Below, one piece after another: positions 18 to 9,417 of a DNA stretch of 25,584 nt (position 1 is its first letter; every line of letters begins with the position of its first letter). This stretch comes from a virus (lineage: Duplodnaviria > Caudoviricetes). Below the pieces are notes generated by a model. It was given only the letters and a program-made list of their open reading frames with translations, ran no database searches and was not told the DNA's origin. The position numbers and the translations under genes are program-made. The DNA lies in IMG/VR virus record IMGVR_UViG_3300049139_000192, positions 1 to 25,584 of that record; one strand, 5' to 3'.

Positions 18-209
18 ATGGGCAAGCACGCACAGAAGCTCACCGGCAGCAAGGCGGACCGCGACGAGCTCACCGCAGCACTCCGCGACGCGGAGACCGT
101 GGAGAGCGAGGACGACCCCCGTCACCTGGCCAGCCAGAAGCGCATCAGGGACGCGGAGGCGAAGCTGCCGCTGCTCGGCCGCATGGTCGCCCGCGACCGC
201 TCCCTCTAA
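18..209 (+). CDS. Hypothetical protein (63 aa)
   Basis: GAAGGAG RBS upstream of ATG; GC3-rich codons. Confidence 0.75.
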   Translation: MGKHAQKLTGSKADRDELTAALRDAETVESEDDPRHLASQKRIRDAEAKLPLLGRMVARDRSL

Positions 210-214
210 CCAGG

Positions 215-260
215 CCCAGCCCGACCGGCAGGCACCCGAGTTCGAGCCTCGGGCGGGCAC
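215..260 (+). ncRNA. tRNA-like three-way-junction element, copy 1 (motif C)
   Basis: GCCCG(219-223)/CGGGC(254-258) closing stem; CC-GGCA-GG mini hairpin; CCCGAG-TTCGAGC-CTCGGG T-arm-like hairpin; ends in AC. Confidence 0.55.
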
Positions 261-314
261 TCGGAGCACACACCACCGGGAGCCGCTCCACTCCCACCAC
301 CGAAGGAGAACCAC

Positions 315-711: not shown

Positions 712-2232
712 ATGAACCTCGACCAGATCAAGACACTCCTCGGCGACGCCATCGCCAGCGTCCCCGACATCGTCTGGGCGGCCACCGCTGGCGTAACCGT
801 GCTTTTCCTCCTCTGGCAGGCCAAGCGCGCCATCACCCGAGCGGCCACGCCCGGCGCCGACCTGCTCACCTACCTCGCCGCGGCCATCGCCACCGGCGTT
901 TCCATGCAAGGCATGTGGCACTTCTTCGAGGTCGTGTTCCCCGACCTGCCCGTGCCCCTGCGCGTCGCGCTGTTCGCGTTCATCGAGATCGGCATGCTCG
1001 CCTCCGCAGTGCGCGCCCGCCGCAACATGCGCGACAGCGCAGAACGCGCCAAGACCGACCCGGCCATCCGCCCGTCCGCCGGCATCGACGGCACCGCCGT
1101 GTGGGTTCTCACCGGCCTCACCGCCGCCCTGTCCTCCCTCGAAGCAGCGAGCGCGCCGGAGTTCATCTTCCGCCTCGCCGCGCCCCTGGTGGCGGCGTGG
1201 CTGTGGGAGCGCGGCATGGCGATCGAGCGGCAGCGCATCACCGGCCGGACCCGGATCAACTGGAGACTCACCCCCGAGCGTGCCCTCGTCCGTCTCGGCC
1301 TGGCGGAGGCGAACGACCGCACCGCCTCTGAGGTGGACGCGCACCGCCGAATCACCAAGGTCGCGCTCGCAGCCAAGCGCGCCCGAGCTCTGCGCGAAGT
1401 CGGCGCTAGCCCGAGGAAGCGGGCCCGCTCGCTGGCCAAGCTCGATCGGGCGCTCGAACGAGCTGTCGAGCACACGAAGCTCAGCCGCGACCAAGTTACC
1501 CAGGCTGCGCTGCTCGACCAGCTCTCCACGCTGTACGGCGCACCGCGGCTGCTCGACCTTCCCGGCCAGGCCCCGTGGGAGCACCTCGACCACCCGGCCG
1601 TCACCGGCCTGATCCGTGACAGCGAGGCCGTCATCCTGGCCGCCGCGCTCGACAGGAACACTGCTCTGCGCGGCGAGGTCTACCCGCGACCGGTCGCGAT
1701 CGGCGACCGGTCGGCGGCCACTTCCGCGACCGGTCGCGACGTCGAGACACCGGACGTGCTGGTCGCCGACGATGCCCTGCCGATCTCCGATGAGGGACGG
1801 TCTTGGCTGGCCGCACTCGTGCCGTGGTCGCGACCGGAGCCGCGACCGGTCGCCGACGAGGTCCGCGATCATCATCCGGTCGCCGATGTGGTCGCGGAAC
1901 CGGTCGCCGTGGACACCTCCGATGAGGGGGTGGTCGCGACCGATCCGCGACCGGTCGCGGACCAGAAAAGGCCGGATGAGCAGGACAGACGTCGGGCGAT
2001 CCGGTTCTACACCGATCGAGCGAAGAAGCTCAACCCGCCCTCAAAGCGGACGCTCGCGGAGTGGACCGGGTTCTCCGAAACGTGGGCGCTCGGATGCATC
2101 CAAGACGCCCGTCAGCGGATGGTCGCGCAGGGGTGGACCTTCGACGACAAGGGCACCCCGACGCCTCCGCGACCGGTCGCCAAACCGGTCGCGACCACCC
2201 CGTCCATCAAGACCGTGAACGGAAGCCAGTGA
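712..2232 (+). CDS. Multi-TM membrane protein with Pro-rich linker and C-terminal HTH-like segment (Spd/spread-protein-like)
   Basis: ATG 712 with GGAG RBS (the track start at 478 overlaps HU); several hydrophobic helices; C-terminal SKRTLAEWTGFSETWALGCIQDAR looks like an HTH; lies upstream of TraB. Confidence 0.75.
   Translation: MNLDQIKTLLGDAIASVPDIVWAATAGVTVLFLLWQAKRAITRAATPGADLLTYLAAAIATGVSMQGMWHFFEVVFPDLPVPLRVALFAFIEIGMLASAVRARRNMRDSAERAKTDPAIRPSAGIDGTAVWVLTGLTAALSSLEAASAPEFIFRLAAPLVAAWLWERGMAIERQRITGRTRINWRLTPERALVRLGLAEANDRTASEVDAHRRITKVALAAKRARALREVGASPRKRARSLAKLDRALERAVEHTKLSRDQVTQAALLDQLSTLYGAPRLLDLPGQAPWEHLDHPAVTGLIRDSEAVILAAALDRNTALRGEVYPRPVAIGDRSAATSATGRDVETPDVLVADDALPISDEGRSWLAALVPWSRPEPRPVADEVRDHHPVADVVAEPVAVDTSDEGVVATDPRPVADQKRPDEQDRRRAIRFYTDRAKKLNPPSKRTLAEWTGFSETWALGCIQDARQRMVAQGWTFDDKGTPTPPRPVAKPVATTPSIKTVNGSQ
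1685..2196. repeat. Intragenic array of the palindrome CGACCGGTCG (up to 18 bp TCCGCGACCGGTCGCGGA)
   Basis: Full copies at 1687, 1704, 1727, 1843, 1948 and 2170, plus GGTCGCGACC at 1826, 1932 and 2187 and several half sites. Confidence 0.9.
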
Positions 2233-2447
2233 TGACCCGCAACCAGAAGCCCATCGACGTCCGCAAGGTGGCGTCGCCCGCCGAGGTCCTGACCGTCGAG
2301 CTGTGCATCGTGGCCGGCGTCATGGTCGCCCTGTACGTGATCGACCCGGACGCGGCCCTGGCCGCGCTTGTCGGATACGCGGCCGTGTGGCTGCTCCGGA
2401 CGGTGCGGGCGATCGTGCGCCGCGCCAGGCGCGGGGGTGCGCGATGA
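2232..2447 (+). CDS. Small membrane protein (71 aa), spread-like
   Basis: TGATG overlap with upstream stop; two hydrophobic segments and a basic C-terminus. Confidence 0.7.
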   Translation: MTRNQKPIDVRKVASPAEVLTVELCIVAGVMVALYVIDPDAALAALVGYAAVWLLRTVRAIVRRARRGGAR

Positions 2448-2659
2448 CCACGCTGCTCCGCGTCCTCGCCGCCATCGCACTCGACCTCCTCAACATCCTC
2501 TGCTACTTCGCAGCGGTCGCCGTGCTCACGTTCGCGCTCGCCCTGCTGTTCCCCATGTCCGTCGCGCTCGTGGTGTCGCTTCTCGCGGTCAGCACCTGGC
2601 ACGGCTACCGCATCGCCTGCCGTATCGAGCGCGCCCGTGAAAGGGGTGAGCACCAATGA
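2444..2659 (+). CDS. Small membrane protein (71 aa), spread-like
   Basis: ATGA overlap; MTTLLRVLAAIALDLL... is hydrophobic. Confidence 0.7.
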   Translation: MTTLLRVLAAIALDLLNILCYFAAVAVLTFALALLFPMSVALVVSLLAVSTWHGYRIACRIERARERGEHQ

Positions 2660-2928
2660 CCACGCCTCTCGTAGTCCTGCTCATCCTGTCCGCGCTCACG
2701 ATGTGCACCCCGACCGGAGCCCAGGCCCGCGCTGAGATCCGGGCCACGACGGCCGCCGCCGGGTGGAAGGCCGTGTTCACCGCTGGCCGCCACCTGCTCC
2801 GCCACGCCCTGCTGCTCCTGGTCGAGCTACTGCACATGGTGGTGTCGGCGGTCGTGTTCATCGGCGGAGTGCTGGCCATCGCCGCCGGCCACCTGGAGAC
2901 CACTGCAACCCCGAGGGAGGCGTCATGA
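2656..2928 (+). CDS. Small membrane protein (90 aa)
   Basis: ATGA overlaps at both ends; hydrophobic segments. Confidence 0.7.
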   Translation: MTTPLVVLLILSALTMCTPTGAQARAEIRATTAAAGWKAVFTAGRHLLRHALLLLVELLHMVVSAVVFIGGVLAIAAGHLETTATPREAS

Positions 2929-5039
2929 CCAGGCCATTCCGCGTCGTCCCCGACCTGCCCGAAGAGGAGCCCATGGACCAGCCCGACGGCGAGCGCGGCA
3001 ACGTGGCCGTCCGCGAGGTCGAACTGCCGCAGGAGCAGGACGCGGAGGTCGCCGTCGAGGAGACCCTCGTCGGCCCGCCCGTGGACCTGCCCGCCGAGCC
3101 GGAGCCGCCGCAGGTGTTCGCCACCATCACCGGCCGCGCGGTCGCCAAGCGCGAGGCGATCGTGCCCGCGTGGGCCCGCTCGAAGGAGGACCTGAAGACC
3201 GCGGCCCGCTATGTCGCCGGCCAGACGGGTTACCGGGTCGCCTACCAGGCGTCGCGTTCCCCGCTGTACGCGGCGCGCACGCTGCGATGGGCGCCCGCTG
3301 GTGGCGGCCGTCTCATCGCGAGGGCGTGGCGGTGGACATGGGACATGGAGACTTCAGATGTCCGGCGTGAGGTGCTGAAGTCTGGCGACGTCGGCGCCTA
3401 TGAGCGGCTGATCGAACGGCGCAACAAGCACGTCAAGAAGCGTCTGCCGATCGCGGGCTGCGGGCTCGGTGCTGCGCTGGGCGGCGGCGCTGCAGCGTGG
3501 TTGACGCTGCCCTGGTGGGCGCAGGTGCCGCTCTGGGGTGGCCTGCTCGCAGGGTTGGCCCGGGTCGGCCGGCCGGTGGACAAGCCGATCGTGGGCCCTG
3601 CTGTGCAGGTGACCAGGTATGAGCGGTTGACGGCGGAGAAGGTGCGTGAGGCGTTGTGCGCGCTGCCGATCGCTGGGTTGAAGGACCCGAAGAAGATCAC
3701 GTTCCCGACGCAGATTCACCGCGACGGCCCTGGTCAGTTGGCCCGTATCAACCTGCCGCTCGGGGTCGAGGCGGTGAAGGTGTGCGAGGCGCGTGAGGGC
3801 TTGTCCTCCGCGTTGCGCCTGCCGGTCGATCAGGTGTGGCCGACCGTAGGCCCTGACCACGCCGGGCAGGTGGACTTGTGGGTCGGCTACCAGCCGGCGA
3901 GCAAGATGAAGCCGCCGCGCTGGTCGATCGCCGCTGACGATGCCCGCACCAGCGTGTTCGAGCCTACGGAGTTCGGGGCGGACCAGCGGCAGCGCGGTGT
4001 GGCCGCGCCTCTGTTCGCTCGGAACTGGCTGATCGGCGGCATGCCCGGCAGTGGTAAGTCGTTCGCGGCGCGGGCGTTGGCGCTGGTCGGGGCGTTGGAC
4101 CCGAACGCAGAGTTCAAGATCGCCGAATATAAGGGGACGGGAGACTTCACCGACTTCTACGACGCCGGCCTGTGCTCCACCTACGTGTGCGGGGTCGACG
4201 ACGAGGCCATCGAGGACGGCGAGCGCATCATCGCCTGGGCGCTGGCGGAGGCTGAGCGGCGCGGCAAGCTGATCAAGAAGTTCCGGGCTGAAGGCCTGGC
4301 GCCCGAGGGCAAGGTGACGCCCGAACTCGCCGCGGCGGGGGTTGGGCTGCACCCGGTGATTGTCCTGCTGGACGAGGTGCATGAGCTGTTCGGCGCGTCG
4401 AAGGAGGCGGCGTCGAACGCCGAGCGGGCCATCAAGCGGGGCCGGGCGCTCGGCATCATCTTCATCCTGGCCACGCAGATCCCGGACAAGGACAGCCTGC
4501 CGCCCGGCATCACCCGGTGCGTCAACATGCGCTGGTGCCTGGCGGTTCAGGACCACATCGCGAACGACATGATCCTGGGCACCGGCAGCTACAAGAGGGG
4601 TGTCACCGGCACCTCGTTCCGGCCGGAGATCGACGCCGGTTGGGGCATGGTGACCGGCCTCGCGGCGCCGACCGCTGTCCGCTCGCAGTTCCCGGATGAG
4701 AAGACGGCCAAGAAGATTCTGGCGCGCGCGATGCAGCTGCGCGGCGGCGTGGCCCCGTGGGCTGACCGCGAGGAGACGCCGCGGGTAGATGTGCTGGTGG
4801 ACGTTCAGCGGGTGTGGCCGGCGGGTCGTACGGCGCTGCCGTGGCAGTGGCTGGCGGAGCTCCTCGTTGAGCACCGGCCGGAGGCGTACGGCGACGTGAC
4901 GGCGGATTCGGTGTCGGCGTGGCTGCGTGGTCTGGATGTGCCGTCGGAGAACGTGAAGGCGTCCGGCCAGGTGCTGAAAGGCTGCAAGCGGGCGGCTGTA
5001 GATGCCGCTGTGGAGCGGCGCGAGCTCGGCCATGGGTAG
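2925..5039 (+). CDS. traB: FtsK/SpoIIIE-family DNA translocase, actinomycete TraB type
   Basis: ATG 2925 with GGAGG RBS; N-terminal TM pair; Walker A GGMPGSGKS; Walker B VIVLLDEVHE; GRALGIIFILATQ motif; short C-terminal winged-helix-like domain. Confidence 0.88.
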   Translation: MTRPFRVVPDLPEEEPMDQPDGERGNVAVREVELPQEQDAEVAVEETLVGPPVDLPAEPEPPQVFATITGRAVAKREAIVPAWARSKEDLKTAARYVAGQTGYRVAYQASRSPLYAARTLRWAPAGGGRLIARAWRWTWDMETSDVRREVLKSGDVGAYERLIERRNKHVKKRLPIAGCGLGAALGGGAAAWLTLPWWAQVPLWGGLLAGLARVGRPVDKPIVGPAVQVTRYERLTAEKVREALCALPIAGLKDPKKITFPTQIHRDGPGQLARINLPLGVEAVKVCEAREGLSSALRLPVDQVWPTVGPDHAGQVDLWVGYQPASKMKPPRWSIAADDARTSVFEPTEFGADQRQRGVAAPLFARNWLIGGMPGSGKSFAARALALVGALDPNAEFKIAEYKGTGDFTDFYDAGLCSTYVCGVDDEAIEDGERIIAWALAEAERRGKLIKKFRAEGLAPEGKVTPELAAAGVGLHPVIVLLDEVHELFGASKEAASNAERAIKRGRALGIIFILATQIPDKDSLPPGITRCVNMRWCLAVQDHIANDMILGTGSYKRGVTGTSFRPEIDAGWGMVTGLAAPTAVRSQFPDEKTAKKILARAMQLRGGVAPWADREETPRVDVLVDVQRVWPAGRTALPWQWLAELLVEHRPEAYGDVTADSVSAWLRGLDVPSENVKASGQVLKGCKRAAVDAAVERRELGHG

Positions 5040-5188
5040 CGGCGGCCGGACCCCTCCGAACCCCTCTCAGGGGCCCTTAGAGGCGTCCGTGGAGGGTCCC
5101 CGCTACCCGCTACCTGGGCGCGTTTTCCCTGGTGGAGGCGGTAGCGGCCTGAGGTAGCGGTACCGCTACCCATCTCGGGGCCGCTACC
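5035..5188. repeat. clt-like locus: seven copies of the 8-mer GGTAGCGG/CCGCTACC
   Basis: GGTAGCGG at 5035, 5140 and 5153; CCGCTACC at 5100, 5107, 5163 and 5181; perfect 18-bp palindrome at 5153-5170; directly after traB. Confidence 0.8.
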
Positions 5189-5206: not shown

Positions 5207-5267
5207 AGCGGTGGTTGCGGGTGCTCTCCCACCCCTTCGGGAGGGCCGCCCGGAGCAGCCGCTCCAC
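5207..5267 (+). ncRNA. Bulged long hairpin, motif A copy 1
   Basis: AGCGGT-[GGT]-TGC-GGGTG...CGCCC-[GGA]-GCA-GCCGCT-CCAC. Confidence 0.6.
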
Positions 5268-5304
5268 GATTCCCCACACACCCGACCAGGACAGAAGGAG
5301 AGCC

Positions 5305-5556
5305 ATGTTCAAGCTGCTCGACAAGCTCGCGAACGCAGGCGCCGGCAGCCGGATGCCCGACGAGAAGCGCACCAGGGCCAGGAGCCAGAGCCAGACCACG
5401 AACGCGCGCAACGAGCTCGCCGCGGTGGCCACCCACCCGGGCGCGGCCCGGGTGGCGCGGAAGTCTGCTGAGGCCCAACTGGTCGGCGAGGTCGGCCAGG
5501 CCAAAGCCAAAGAGCTGATGGCTCAGGCCGACCGCAGGGCGCGGAGGTCGTTCTGA
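5305..5556 (+). CDS. Hypothetical protein (83 aa)
   Basis: GAAGGAG RBS before ATG 5305. Confidence 0.7.
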   Translation: MFKLLDKLANAGAGSRMPDEKRTRARSQSQTTNARNELAAVATHPGAARVARKSAEAQLVGEVGQAKAKELMAQADRRARRSF

Positions 5557-5747
5557 TGGGCGTCTTCATGAAGCTCGCCGGCCTCGGCACGCTCTTCGGC
5601 GGCGGGTCGTTGCTGACGGGGTGGCTGCTGTTCGGCGGGCACACCGCGCTGGCGGGGCTGGCGCTCGCCGTCACGGCGGCGCTGACCGTCGGCGTGATCG
5701 TGCTCATCGCGCGGGAAACCAGGCTCGCCGATCGGGTGCAGCGGTGA
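5556..5747 (+). CDS. Small membrane protein (63 aa)
   Basis: TGATG coupling; two hydrophobic helices. Confidence 0.7.
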   Translation: MGVFMKLAGLGTLFGGGSLLTGWLLFGGHTALAGLALAVTAALTVGVIVLIARETRLADRVQR

Positions 5748-5929
5748 TGGACCGGTGGCGGGTCATCATCCGCGGCCAGTCCGCCGAGGCCACGGCCACC
5801 AAGCGCGGCGCCGAGAAGGCGGCGGAGCAGGTGCGCGAGCACGGCCTGCCCGCGCACGTCGAGAAAACCAGGCGCTGCCCGGTCTGCCGCCTGCACGGGT
5901 GCACGCCGGGCCAGTGCCCGGACCAGTAG
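5747..5929 (+). CDS. Hypothetical protein (60 aa) with Cys/His-rich C-terminus
   Basis: TGATG coupling; CPVCRLHGCTPGQC. Confidence 0.65.
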   Translation: MDRWRVIIRGQSAEATATKRGAEKAAEQVREHGLPAHVEKTRRCPVCRLHGCTPGQCPDQ

Positions 5930-5930
5930 C

Positions 5931-5990
5931 GCTGGCGTTGCGGATCGCGCCCGACCCGCTCGGGCGCGCGTCCGGAGCAGTCAGCTCCAC
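5931..5990 (+). ncRNA. Bulged long hairpin, motif A copy 2
   Basis: GCTGGC-[GT]-TGC-GGAT...GTCC-[GGA]-GCA-GTCAGC-TCCAC. Confidence 0.65.
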
Positions 5991-6008
5991 AAAGCGAAGG
6001 AGAACGAC

Positions 6009-6191
6009 ATGGGAGCCAAGGAAGTCAAGGCCGCACGAGCCAGGCTGACGGCGACCATCGCCAACGAGGTCACCCAGAACGGCGGCAAGCCGATCGGCGA
6101 GGACAACCCCGCCTACCAGGAGGCCAAGAAGGCAGTGGACGACGCCGTCGAGGAGGTCGACCGGGCAAACGACCCGTGGAACAACGCCTGA
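6009..6191 (+). CDS. Hypothetical protein (60 aa)
   Basis: GAAGGAG RBS; GC3-rich codons. Confidence 0.75.
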   Translation: MGAKEVKAARARLTATIANEVTQNGGKPIGEDNPAYQEAKKAVDDAVEEVDRANDPWNNA

Positions 6192-6193
6192 CC

Positions 6194-6260
6194 GCTGGCG
6201 TTGCGGCTGTCCGCCCGGCATGAGGGGCGTCGGGCGGACGGCCGGAGCAGCCAGCTCCAC
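6194..6260 (+). ncRNA. Bulged long hairpin, motif A copy 3
   Basis: GCTGGC-[GT]-TGC-GGCTGTCCGCCC...GGGCGGACGGCC-[GGA]-GCA-GCCAGC-TCCAC. Confidence 0.65.
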
Positions 6261-6285
6261 AGGTGACCGAACGAAGGAGATCAAC

Positions 6286-6435
6286 ATGGCACTGAAGCGC
6301 TGTCCCACATGCCGAGGCAAAGGCAAGGTCATCGGCGACAACTACGGAGCCGGCGAGAAGCGCTGCCCCGGCGCCTGCCGCGGTGACGGGTGGATCGTCG
6401 TCGCGAACGAGCCCGACTCGACGCAGAGCCAGTGA
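6286..6435 (+). CDS. Small DnaJ-like zinc-finger protein (49 aa)
   Basis: GAAGGAG RBS; CPTCRGKG and CPGACRGDG resemble CxxCxGxG repeats. Confidence 0.75.
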   Translation: MALKRCPTCRGKGKVIGDNYGAGEKRCPGACRGDGWIVVANEPDSTQSQ

Positions 6436-6569
6436 CGCCCTGCCCGCGCTGCACTGCGGCGCTGGACGAGGGCCCGGTCGTCTACCGGTGCTCGACCTGC
6501 CGCCGGTCCGTGTACGCCGCGGACGTGGACGTCGAGTTCCACGCACGCCAGCCCGTCGCGGCCCGCTGA
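6432..6569 (+). CDS. Small zinc-ribbon protein (45 aa; not in ORF track)
   Basis: GTGA overlap; MTPCPRCTAALDEGPVVYRCSTCRRSVYAADVDVEFHARQPVAAR has two CxxC motifs. Confidence 0.7.
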   Translation: MTPCPRCTAALDEGPVVYRCSTCRRSVYAADVDVEFHARQPVAAR

Positions 6570-6631
6570 CCGGCCGTCCGGGGTGCTCCATCCGCCGCAC
6601 AGCGGGTGGGGTGCCCGGGGCGACCGGCCCC
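6570..6631 (+). ncRNA. Interrupted long hairpin, motif B copy 1
   Basis: CCGGCCGTCCGGGGTG...CCCGGGGCGACCGGCCCC; begins right after a stop codon. Confidence 0.55.
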
Positions 6632-6654
6632 ACCACCGACCGAAGGAGACCCCC

Positions 6655-6792
6655 ATGAAGGACGAGACGAAGCCCGACGGCAAGGGCCTGCTGCTCGGAG
6701 AGCTGCTCCGCCGGTCCATCGCACCGCGGATGGCGGCCGAGGCCGAGCGGAGGGAGCACCCCCGCCCGCTCGGCCTCGACGAGACCGACTGA
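6655..6792 (+). CDS. Hypothetical protein (45 aa)
   Basis: GAAGGAG RBS before ATG 6655. Confidence 0.6.
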   Translation: MKDETKPDGKGLLLGELLRRSIAPRMAAEAERREHPRPLGLDETD

Positions 6793-6793
6793 C

Positions 6794-6854
6794 CCGGCCG
6801 CCTAGGGTGCCCGCCCGGCAGTCGTCGGGCGGGACTCCCGGGGCGACCGGCCCC
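6794..6854 (+). ncRNA. Interrupted long hairpin, motif B copy 2
   Basis: CCGGCCGCCTAGGGTG...CCCGGGGCGACCGGCCCC (18-bp exact match to 6614-6631). Confidence 0.55.
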
Positions 6855-6877
6855 CAGCATCGAGAGAGGAATCCACC

Positions 6878-7057
6878 GTGACGAAACGCAAGGACCTGCA
6901 GCAGGCCGCCCGTAACGCGAAGGCGCAGGCCGCCGACTTTGGCCGCATCGCCGACAAGGGCGGCGAAGCGCCGTGGGACGCCGAGACCGCGCGCCAGATG
7001 CGCGACCTGGCCGCCACGTACGCCGACAAGTACACCCGCAGGCTGAACGGAGGCTGA
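6878..7057 (+). CDS. Hypothetical protein (59 aa; not in ORF track)
   Basis: GAGGA RBS, GTG start, MTKRKDLQQAARNAKAQAADFGRIADKGGEAPWDAETARQMRDLAATYADKYTRRLNGG; GC3-rich codons. Confidence 0.7.
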   Translation: MTKRKDLQQAARNAKAQAADFGRIADKGGEAPWDAETARQMRDLAATYADKYTRRLNGG

Positions 7058-7075: not shown

Positions 7076-7108
7076 ACGCCCCACCCCCAACGTTCGGGGG
7101 TGGGGCGT
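7076..7108. terminator. Probable bidirectional intrinsic terminator
   Basis: ACGCCCCACCCCC / GGGGGTGGGGCGT perfect 13-bp stem between convergent genes. Confidence 0.8.
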
Positions 7109-7572: not shown

Positions 7573-7657
7573 GGTTCCCCCTGAGGTGTCGTGTGGTGTC
7601 CGGTTAGGCCGGTCCGCGAGCCACCCAGTACGGGCCTGGGTGGCCGGGCGCACCGTC

Positions 7658-7909
7658 CTAGCGGTCGGTGGTGGCGGGCGAATAGGCGACGACGGTCAGG
7701 CGGACCTGGGAGCCGTCGGACAGGTCGAGCACGAGGCCCTTGTCCTGGGTGGCGATGCGGGCTTCGGCGTACGTCTCGACGCCGTCCACGATCGGCCACT
7801 CTGTGCGGCCCTCGGTCCAGAGGAGTTCCCGCCCCTCCGGGCTGGTGAGCTGCTCGACGAGGGCGTCTTGGAAGTTCTGGGCGAGGGTGTCGTTGCGCAT
7901 CTTGGTCAT
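7658..7909 (-). CDS. Hypothetical protein (83 aa)
   Basis: Abuts the upstream gene; GC3-rich codons. Confidence 0.7.
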   Translation of the reverse strand: MTKMRNDTLAQNFQDALVEQLTSPEGRELLWTEGRTEWPIVDGVETYAEARIATQDKGLVLDLSDGSQVRLTVVAYSPATTDR

Positions 7910-8675: not shown

Positions 8676-8718
8676 ACTCTACCCAACGTGTAGCCCTATG
8701 TCTAGGGCTACACGTTGG
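8676..8718 (-). promoter_or_regulatory. Housekeeping-sigma-like promoter overlapped by a 16-bp inverted-repeat operator
   Basis: Minus strand TAGACA-N17-TAGAGT (8699-8704 / 8676-8681); CCAACGTGTAGCCCTA-tgtc-TAGGGCTACACGTTGG at 8683-8718. Confidence 0.75.
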
Positions 8719-8754
8719 CCATAACCGTTCGGCATGGATCGGGCCCAGCCCCAG

Positions 8755-9325: not shown

Positions 9326-9417
9326 ACTCTAGCCCTACATGTAGCCCTACGTCTAGGCCGACACGTCGGGTATAACCGTTGGGCATGAGTCCGAACAAAG
9401 CCGCACCGTAGGGCTAC
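9326..9417 (-). promoter_or_regulatory. Second copy of the promoter with TAGCCCTAC operator repeats
   Basis: Minus strand TAGACG-N18-TAGAGT (9350-9355 / 9326-9331); TAGCCCTAC at 9330 and 9342; inverted GTAGGGCTAC at 9408. Confidence 0.72.

Follow-up and report, generated by a model that had tools for sequence, protein, structure and literature searches.

A family of covarying RNA hairpins with two folds in micro-gene arrays of actinomycete prophages and conjugative elements: probable RNase III processing sites

The intergenic hairpins that punctuate an array of micro-genes in the DNA analysed here (the window, a complete 25.6-kb virus record of 25,584 nucleotides) belong to a real family of RNA elements, which is spread widely in a single host family and for which the searches found no earlier description. 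The family comprises at least 102 distinct copies, which have in common a fold on the message strand, a second short hairpin, an intergenic position and changing gene neighbours. An initial annotation of the window had offered three readings of the hairpins: RNase processing or stability sites like those of the T7 early region, a ribosome-coupled translational switch, or attC-like recombination sites. The first is the best supported of the three, with the cutting itself being predicted. Judging from the pairing pattern of the copies, we think it probable that the hairpin is a T7-like RNase III processing site which doubles as a portable junction for gene exchange.

The minus strand of the window carries siphophage tail, endolysin and holin genes (Pfam/PHROG-type profile search of the window), and the plus strand carries genes for HU, for membrane proteins and for an FtsK-like translocase, besides an array of ORFs of 45-83 aa. 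The hairpin array lies immediately 3' of the translocase gene (Table 1). With the FtsK-domain protein of the Streptomyces plasmid pSVH1 the translocase shares 28% identity, thus the phage carries a transfer module of the TraB type. The 83-aa ORF at the head of the array had no Pfam or PHROG match. All three intergenic hairpins of the initial annotation are present in the sequence; copies 2 and 3 begin, as noted there, 1 and 2 nt past the stops at 5929 and 6191, and the GAAGGAG ribosome sites were located behind the copies, followed by ATG start codons at 5305, 6009 and 6286. The linkers between hairpin and ribosome site are 75% C+A family-wide. The count of three was too low, however: a sister copy at 6570-6631 and a look-alike at 6794-6854 had been overlooked. 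The GGAGC..GCTCC pair reported at 263-289 before HU exists, but its loop is 17 nt long. A full hairpin copy precedes HU in the relatives L121, L246 and L416, and the copy-3 subtype also occurs, with other neighbours, in L120, L246 and L080. The folding z-scores of copies 1, 2 and 3 are -1.6, -3.2 and -5.0.

Table 1. Hairpins, micro-ORFs and associated features of the window.
Feature	Position	Strand	Basis
Likely remnant of 3' arm and short hairpin, fused to another hairpin before HU	251..289	+	sequence
FtsK/SpoIIIE-like, TraB-type DNA translocase gene, heads the array	2925..5039	+	phrog_1358, E 2e-22
Hairpin copy 1; predicted cuts 5220/5221 and 5251/5252; short alternative hairpin 5252-5265	5207..5265	+	57.6 bits, model seed
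Ribosome binding site GAAGGAG, behind C/A-rich linker	5294..5300	+	sequence
Micro-ORF, 83 aa; its family is the most frequent downstream partner of hairpins (11/89)	5305..5556	+	
Micro-ORF, 63 aa, hydrophobic, no preceding hairpin; exactly deleted in related soil contigs (joint 5560 to 5752)	5556..5747	+	
Micro-ORF, 60 aa, cysteine-rich end	5747..5929	+	
Hairpin copy 2; predicted cuts 5943/5944 and 5973/5974; short hairpin 5974-5988	5931..5988	+	73.8 bits, model seed
Ribosome binding site GAAGGAG	5996..6002	+	sequence
Micro-ORF, 60 aa	6009..6191	+	
Hairpin copy 3; predicted cuts 6206/6207 and 6243/6244; short hairpin 6244-6258	6194..6258	+	69.7 bits, model seed
Ribosome binding site GAAGGAG	6273..6279	+	sequence
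Micro-ORF, 49 aa, zinc-finger-like; weak Anti-TRAP and DnaJ matches under cut-off	6286..6435	+	
Micro-ORF, 45 aa, zinc-ribbon-like (weak)	6432..6569	+	
Sister copy (G-variant), C-G replaces U-A, mismatch shifted one pair; short hairpin GGGGC/GCCCC at 6617-6631	6570..6631	+	26.4 bits, E 5.6e-5, non-seed
Micro-ORF, 45 aa	6655..6792	+	
Second G-variant hairpin, before ORF 6878; upper stem alone matches the model (18.3 bits)	6794..6854	+	sequence, fold
Micro-ORF, 59 aa, last of the array	6878..7057	+	

The window contains further repeats and hairpins. A second repeated motif (CCCAGCCCGACCGG ... GGCACCC ... CGGGC) at 217-260 and 617-672 could form a three-way junction past stop codons, and the stretch 617-717 has a match in L275. 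A 55-nt direct repeat (8682-8736 and 9333-9387, 84%) with a long palindrome precedes a pair of related helix-turn-helix genes encoded by the minus strand; the single sigma-70-like promoter found overlaps it, both leaders carry GGAGCACCACC before the ribosome site, and the two repeats are likely operator-promoter units. Many GCGACCGGTCGC-type palindromic repeats are found at 1680-2200, within a 506-aa membrane-protein ORF. Directly 3' of the translocase gene (5035-5188) CGCTACC or its complement occurs seven times in 155 nt, with 6 further copies in the remaining window; the cluster, also seen in L120, resembles a clt-type recognition locus of TraB. Two convergent micro-gene arrays are separated by a strong hairpin at 7076-7108, likely a two-way terminator. 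In the opposite micro-gene array, on the minus strand, a long hairpin with spaced 1x1 mismatches (7600-7659) lies between a stop and a ribosome site; it scores 11.8 bits with the covariance model and may be another processing site. Full temperate siphophages with a Streptomyces-type transfer module (TraB-like FtsK, membrane proteins, GntR, HU) are represented by the window (712-5039), G541, G545 and L424, and the same layout was found in a Pseudonocardia phage-plasmid.

The fold of the family is a near-continuous helix, 5'-G(U/C)U-G-CGG / CCG-G-AGC, with a single G.G mismatch. Its consensus consists of an outer stem, the pairs G-C, U.G and U-A, the G.G mismatch, the pairs C-G, G-C and G-C, and then two wobble pairs below an upper stem that varies. 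This register was taken from the minimum-energy folds of single copies and from the RNAalifold consensus of 63 copies, neither of which preferred the arrangement proposed initially (GT bulge, TGC/GCA, GGA bulge). The natural variants also favour the near-continuous register over the bulged one, since the G.G mismatch is closed by a true pair in 5 of the 102 copies, and the partner A required by the bulged register is absent in 15. The core U-A pair holds in 101/102 copies and the mismatch is fixed in 95/101. Stem columns contain G.U 259 times and A.C 16 times (102 copies), and the sense strand is the better folder in 98/102 copies; both observations indicate an RNA fold on the message strand.

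In the 63 seed copies 89.9% of the cells are paired as against 78.5% in shuffles, a value reached by none of 500 shuffles, and 11 of 17 pairs vary on both sides, a figure inflated by the relatedness of the copies. With the same caveat, covariation exceeds that of every one of the 500 shuffles and of every slid control. The covariation of the outer stem, which had been read from three copies, holds for the family (mean 3.6 pairs vs 2.8 when partners are swapped; the highest of 1000 swaps gave 3.2). The accompanying statement that structure rather than sequence is conserved applies to the outer and upper stems but not to the core, which is near-invariant in sequence; the core letters were fixed in the search patterns, which partly accounts for this invariance. 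No search pattern covered the upper stem, the outer stem or position -11 (see below).

By inspection, several known motifs were rejected: a kink-turn (the bulged strand has no GA), a bulge-helix-bulge (polarity and register are both wrong), small ribozymes (catalytic cores absent) and a CsrA site (the GGA is paired in either fold). Three natural controls exist in which the 3' arm is a nearly perfect complement of the 5' arm and the short hairpin is lost too (L305:5449-5520, L210:19-90, L159:4206-4272), and in the copy at L308:6503-6542 the entire upper stem is deleted, with the core and the short hairpin retained.

The family was collected with three pattern scans, each of which covered 42-51 of 64 parts, and with a covariance model trained on the 63 seeds. 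Such a model search of relatives had been suggested by the initial annotation, and it did recover homologous copies: applied to 57 chosen sources it gave 144 rows, of which the top 109 (34 bits or more) were kept, six weaker in-array rows were added, 29 were dropped (mostly antisense echoes and partial matches) and duplicates were removed, leaving the 102 copies. These occupy at least 47 loci (~44 contigs), at most six per locus. The carriers are TraB/FtsK-carrying prophages and AICE-like elements, where named mostly of Streptosporangiaceae. Among at least 123 genome loci listed, the convincing ones belong to 18 named genomes, 17 of Streptosporangiaceae (carriers in Nonomuraea, Streptosporangium, Sphaerisporangium, Planotetraspora, Spongiactinospora and Thermoactinospora) and one MAG labelled Gemmatimonadaceae. 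At 96 other genome loci chance pattern matches reach up to 34.3 bits, therefore scores near 34 are by themselves no proof. When 151 genomes of the host family were searched with the model (33 candidates per genome scored), at least 19 had a match, about 9 of them strong. A looser pattern applied to 401 genomes of the class was matched no more often than a reversed-pattern control and is thus uninformative on spread; five of these genomes are flagged as unpublished and support no conclusion here.

A homolog of the FtsK gene of the window was present in 21 of 33 loci tested; other loci adjoin integrases, FtsK-domain genes, type IV coupling proteins or a replication gene like that of pSAM2. At L414 no mobile marker was found and the copy overlaps a predicted peptidase ORF; this copy may be a chance match. 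A ribosome site and an ORF (median about 64 aa, 52 families) follow the hairpin in 89/102 copies, the ribosome site and ORF lying 31-56 nt beyond the predicted cut, a count made without a chance control. At L419:6956-7582 a cargo gene with a Pycsar-effector-like domain (PF18967, E 4e-11) stands behind two G-variant hairpins and adjoins a type IV coupling protein.

Rfam 15 contained no match at the gathering threshold (best E 0.35, unrelated eukaryotic models), and the INPHARED phages included no relative of the window by DNA or FtsK protein. PLSDB gave short chance matches alone; its Nonomuraea gerenzanensis match, the Pseudonocardia phage-plasmid and pSVH1 had no model match. The Nonomuraea gerenzanensis entry (NZ_LT559118.1, 11.85 Mb; L422, L423) is listed in PLSDB as a plasmid, yet it is chromosome-sized. 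We found no description of the family in the mostly openly accessible literature searched. Large catalogues of predicted viral RNA structures exist, and the family could be an unnamed entry in one of them.

Related elements were found to carry different ORFs between the same hairpins, as the cassette idea of the initial annotation supposed. The copy-3 subtype has three upstream and four downstream ORF families across four phages, and an ORF homologous to window 18-209 sits behind a copy-3 hairpin in L120. Pairs of near-identical hairpins had a common upstream family in 4 of 33 cases and a common downstream family in 8 of 39; linkage was clearest for the copy-1 subtype, where the first ORF after traB is kept in 4/5 cases. 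In soil contigs from four runs the joints 5929 to 6193 and 6260 to 6876 coincide with the two edges of hairpins, and the ORF 5556-5747 was exactly lost with no hairpin involved. Among these, X1 may have a source akin to that of the window itself. No RNA run was listed among the sequencing runs that carry the sequence. Breakpoints at both hairpin edges argue for homology-type exchange and against attC. The hairpins would act as shared 60-70 nt islands that provide homology for exchange, by which micro-genes could be gained or lost together with a ready-made processing signal, and the data fit exchange at shared islands filtered by selection, much like that of the PeSL cassettes of T4-type phages (see below), not a fixed crossover. 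The relative G545 encodes RecE and RecT.

Shuffled gene order would also be expected if the hairpins were attC-like folded single-stranded DNA sites for a site-specific recombinase. The stems fold as DNA too, and the hairpin bins of the soil contigs are far deeper (X1: 630 and 798 vs about 25-265 in most ORF bins). The core boxes of attC are RYYYAAC and GTTRRRY, however, and these occur in 0/102 copies; an integron integrase scored over cut-off in none of five phage records, which are 53-87% complete; the hairpin is bound to neither neighbour; the G.U pairs are those of the mRNA strand; and the joints lie at both edges (6193, 6260), with one exact ORF loss lacking a hairpin altogether. The attC reading is already largely refuted, and we regard it as hardly credible.

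The second element of the family is a 5-bp hairpin, GGAGC/GCUCC, which begins at the base of the upper stem and covaries with GGGGC/GCCCC. Five bases immediately 3' of the upper stem find their partner 3-6 nt downstream, and 5/5 pairs form in 94/102 copies. In nine copies A64 is replaced by G; its partner in the short hairpin is C in eight of the nine and its partner in the long helix is U or C, which shows that one base serves both folds. In the window copies the long form is 4-11 kcal/mol more stable than the alternative, the stability of the short hairpin being just about -8.7 kcal/mol. When the 5' arm was blocked in silico, all four window copies tested folded into the upper and the short hairpin without a gap.

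These two folds bear on the translational switch proposed initially. The mutually exclusive folds and the adjacent stops are real, but the ribosome site has a predicted access of 0.60 with either fold (89 copies; 3 go up and 3 go down), thus the hairpin is no occlusion switch. A conformational switch without cleavage, gated by the ribosome or by a bound protein, could work differently: a ribosome finishing the upstream ORF would melt the 5' arm, leaving two abutting hairpins which alter read-through, decay or re-initiation, and RNase III or another double-strand binder might bind but not cut. Binding of RNase III without cutting is documented (PMC6212723 and PMC10126417). Such a switch would be in line with the covariation of the short hairpin, with the two-hairpin form of the blocked window copies and with the upstream stop codon, which lies within 15 nt of the core in 72/102 copies (ending 1-14 nt before it, and 1 nt before it in 20; a count without chance control). 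Against it stand the equal ribosome-site access, the variable distance from stop to core and the first-in-array copies, such as copy 1, which have no nearby upstream stop; moreover, the closeness of the stops is equally explained by the tight packing of phage genes. We consider a non-cleaving switch unlikely. It is somewhat easier to imagine, although still doubtful, that switching and cutting are combined in a translation-gated processing cassette, in which the upstream ribosome flips the hairpin to the two-hairpin form and thereby hides the RNase III site.

According to the preferred processing reading, host RNase III would split the long array transcript into separately protected mRNAs. The enzyme dimer would bind a ~25-bp helix centred on the two G-C pairs of the core and cleave the arms with a 2-nt stagger, the 5' arm behind ..UGCGG and the 3' arm behind ..CC. 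The cut in the 3' arm would free GGAGC for pairing with GCUCC, and the downstream mRNA would have no loose end but begin with a hairpin, as is predicted for 78 of 89 products. Protection of mRNA by a 5' hairpin is established. A nick in the 3' arm alone, as at T7 R1.1, would leave the upper hairpin at the 3' end of the upstream mRNA. The scheme would thus add a refolding step to T7-type processing.

The predicted cuts rest on a pseudo-dyad, UGC plus two G/C bases on each arm, where a 2-nt staggered cut coincides with the first base of the short hairpin. This register was fixed before the pair-count table of E. coli in vivo RNase III sites was consulted (Table S4 of PMC6212723). Scored with that table, the chosen register is a sharp local maximum (mean -12.4 vs -14.6 and -15.2 one step away). 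The seven core pairs (GC, UG, UA, GG, CG, GC, GC) are arranged in the best of 840 possible orders; the lower half was picked after the per-position scores had been seen, and a correction for 9 registers and 2 halves raises the 1-in-840 to about 0.02. All 12 central pairs give p = 0.018, and 87/102 copies are singly under p 0.05, the copies being related and their counts therefore not independent events. In the E. coli set G.G is most frequent at the position of the hairpin's mismatch (6/85) and U-A is the top pair at its own position (38/85) (PMC6212723). At position D, where A-U or U-A is expected, the lower half has U-A in 92/102 copies and the upper half G.U or G-C. The same paper gives the rule of G-C or C-G pairs between the two cuts and an RNase III contact at 11 nt, matching position -11 (PMC6212723). 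The pairs between the predicted cuts are formed in 101/102 and 99/101 copies, nearly all as G-C. G is found at -11 from the 3'-arm cut in 96/102 copies, compared with 35 to 64 at -9, -10 and -13, and this G is the conservation peak of the upper stem; on the 5' arm the -11 G is present in 54/102. On the transcribed strand the duplex is of the length expected for an RNase III substrate, about 22 bp or more.

The upper half-site, however, fits poorly: U.G and G.U occupy positions with 0/85 in the E. coli set. The G-variant copy at 6570 has G.G at a position with 0/85. A register seven steps up, in the fully paired upper stem, scores equally and is the best in 41/98 copies, compared with 28 for the chosen one, thus a plain G-C stem also passes and the informative part is the placing of the imperfect pairs. 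The table comes from E. coli, and RNase III of actinomycetes may obey different rules; for the S. coelicolor enzyme, cleavage at an internal loop and a preference for G-C-rich RNA are reported (PMC10126417). Genes for RNase III and RNase J were found in 5/5 hairpin-carrying host genomes each, and an RNase III gene in 0/5 phage records. The text of papers on pre-rRNA processing in actinomycetes offered no coordinates of cuts for comparison. In two host pre-23S stalks the second-best register by the E. coli table likewise begins with N-GAGCA, a weak echo, and the host rpsO-pnp hairpin and 16S stalk had no clear signature in common with the family. A resemblance between the upper stem (GUGCUCGC) and the host 23S trailer was noticed post hoc and is discounted.

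Two other roles were weighed against RNase III processing. The long G+C-rich stems immediately past stop codons could be partial intrinsic terminators without a U-tract, or passive barriers to 3' exonucleases, which grade the expression of the array and whose core is inherited, not selected. Actinomycete terminators frequently lack U-tracts. However, only 1/102 copies is followed by a T-rich tract, the hairpins were not called by a terminator scan, and a terminator has no need of a fixed G.G mismatch or a covarying second hairpin, which makes this role quite unlikely. The hairpin might also be the substrate of another, element-encoded nuclease or RNA-binding protein: the family is restricted to mobile regions, with strong matches at one or two loci in 5 host genomes and within 0.3-6 kb in 5 phage records. 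The carriers are diverse, though, ranging from prophages to a pSAM2-like element with RepSA, FtsK and integrase and to loci with a type IV coupling protein, and no common candidate emerged from a non-exhaustive comparison of their small proteins (FtsK identity is 25 to 89%). We find such a dedicated factor very improbable.

If RNase III does cut the hairpins, they would be useful beyond the present elements. Little is settled about the rules by which actinomycete RNase III cuts, and 100 natural variants with a cut predicted at base level make these rules testable. The host family consists of antibiotic-producing genera, and RNase III is required for antibiotic production in Streptomyces (PMC10126417). 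A 60-nt unit predicted to leave both products with protected ends could be used to uncouple the genes of synthetic operons. Should the translation-gated form be true, cutting and re-capping would happen only once upstream translation stops, and the hairpin would be a portable sensor as well as a junction, into which any micro-gene could be plugged to obtain its own condition-dependent mRNA. The hairpins also suggest a concrete route for the sharing and reordering of unknown micro-genes among phages and conjugative elements, and the starts of such genes can be recognised by the motif.

It is instructive to compare the hairpins with known systems. Integron attC sites are likewise imperfect palindromes behind ORFs in variable gene arrays, but the hairpin family has no R boxes, no integron integrase and no single crossover point. 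The Bacillus phages SP82 and SPO1 have RNase III sites in their early transcripts, where processing stems separate small genes and the Gram-positive host likewise has RNase J; they are lytic phages of Firmicutes, unlike the actinomycete prophages and conjugative elements described here. The SAS/ESAS of cluster K mycobacteriophages are similar in being imperfect inverted repeats with a variable spacer and a ribosome site before varied gene families, but the authors found little support for RNA pairing of ESAS (PMC3203893), whereas our family has covariation and a G.U bias; on limited comparison we saw no sequence likeness. The PeSL cassettes of T4-type phages are repeated small regulatory units among non-essential small ORFs and recombination points for modular shuffling (PMC2839356). 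Neighbouring ORFs are shuffled at our repeats too, but PeSLs combine a promoter and a terminator, whereas the hairpin unit has no U-tract and a scan limited to sigma-70-like promoters found none between hairpin and ribosome site; it has instead a sequence-fixed duplex core and two folds. The closest likeness in function would be to the early RNase III sites of T7, such as R1.1; these too are stems set between the genes of a polycistronic phage transcript, and a single-strand nick by host RNase III matures and protects the mRNAs (PMC8708148 and PMC6212723). Compared with the internal loop of the T7 sites the hairpin family has a G+C-rich helix with a G.G mismatch, its predicted cleavage would produce a new 5' end capped by the built-in second hairpin, and its copies form a repeat family common to unrelated elements and genes.
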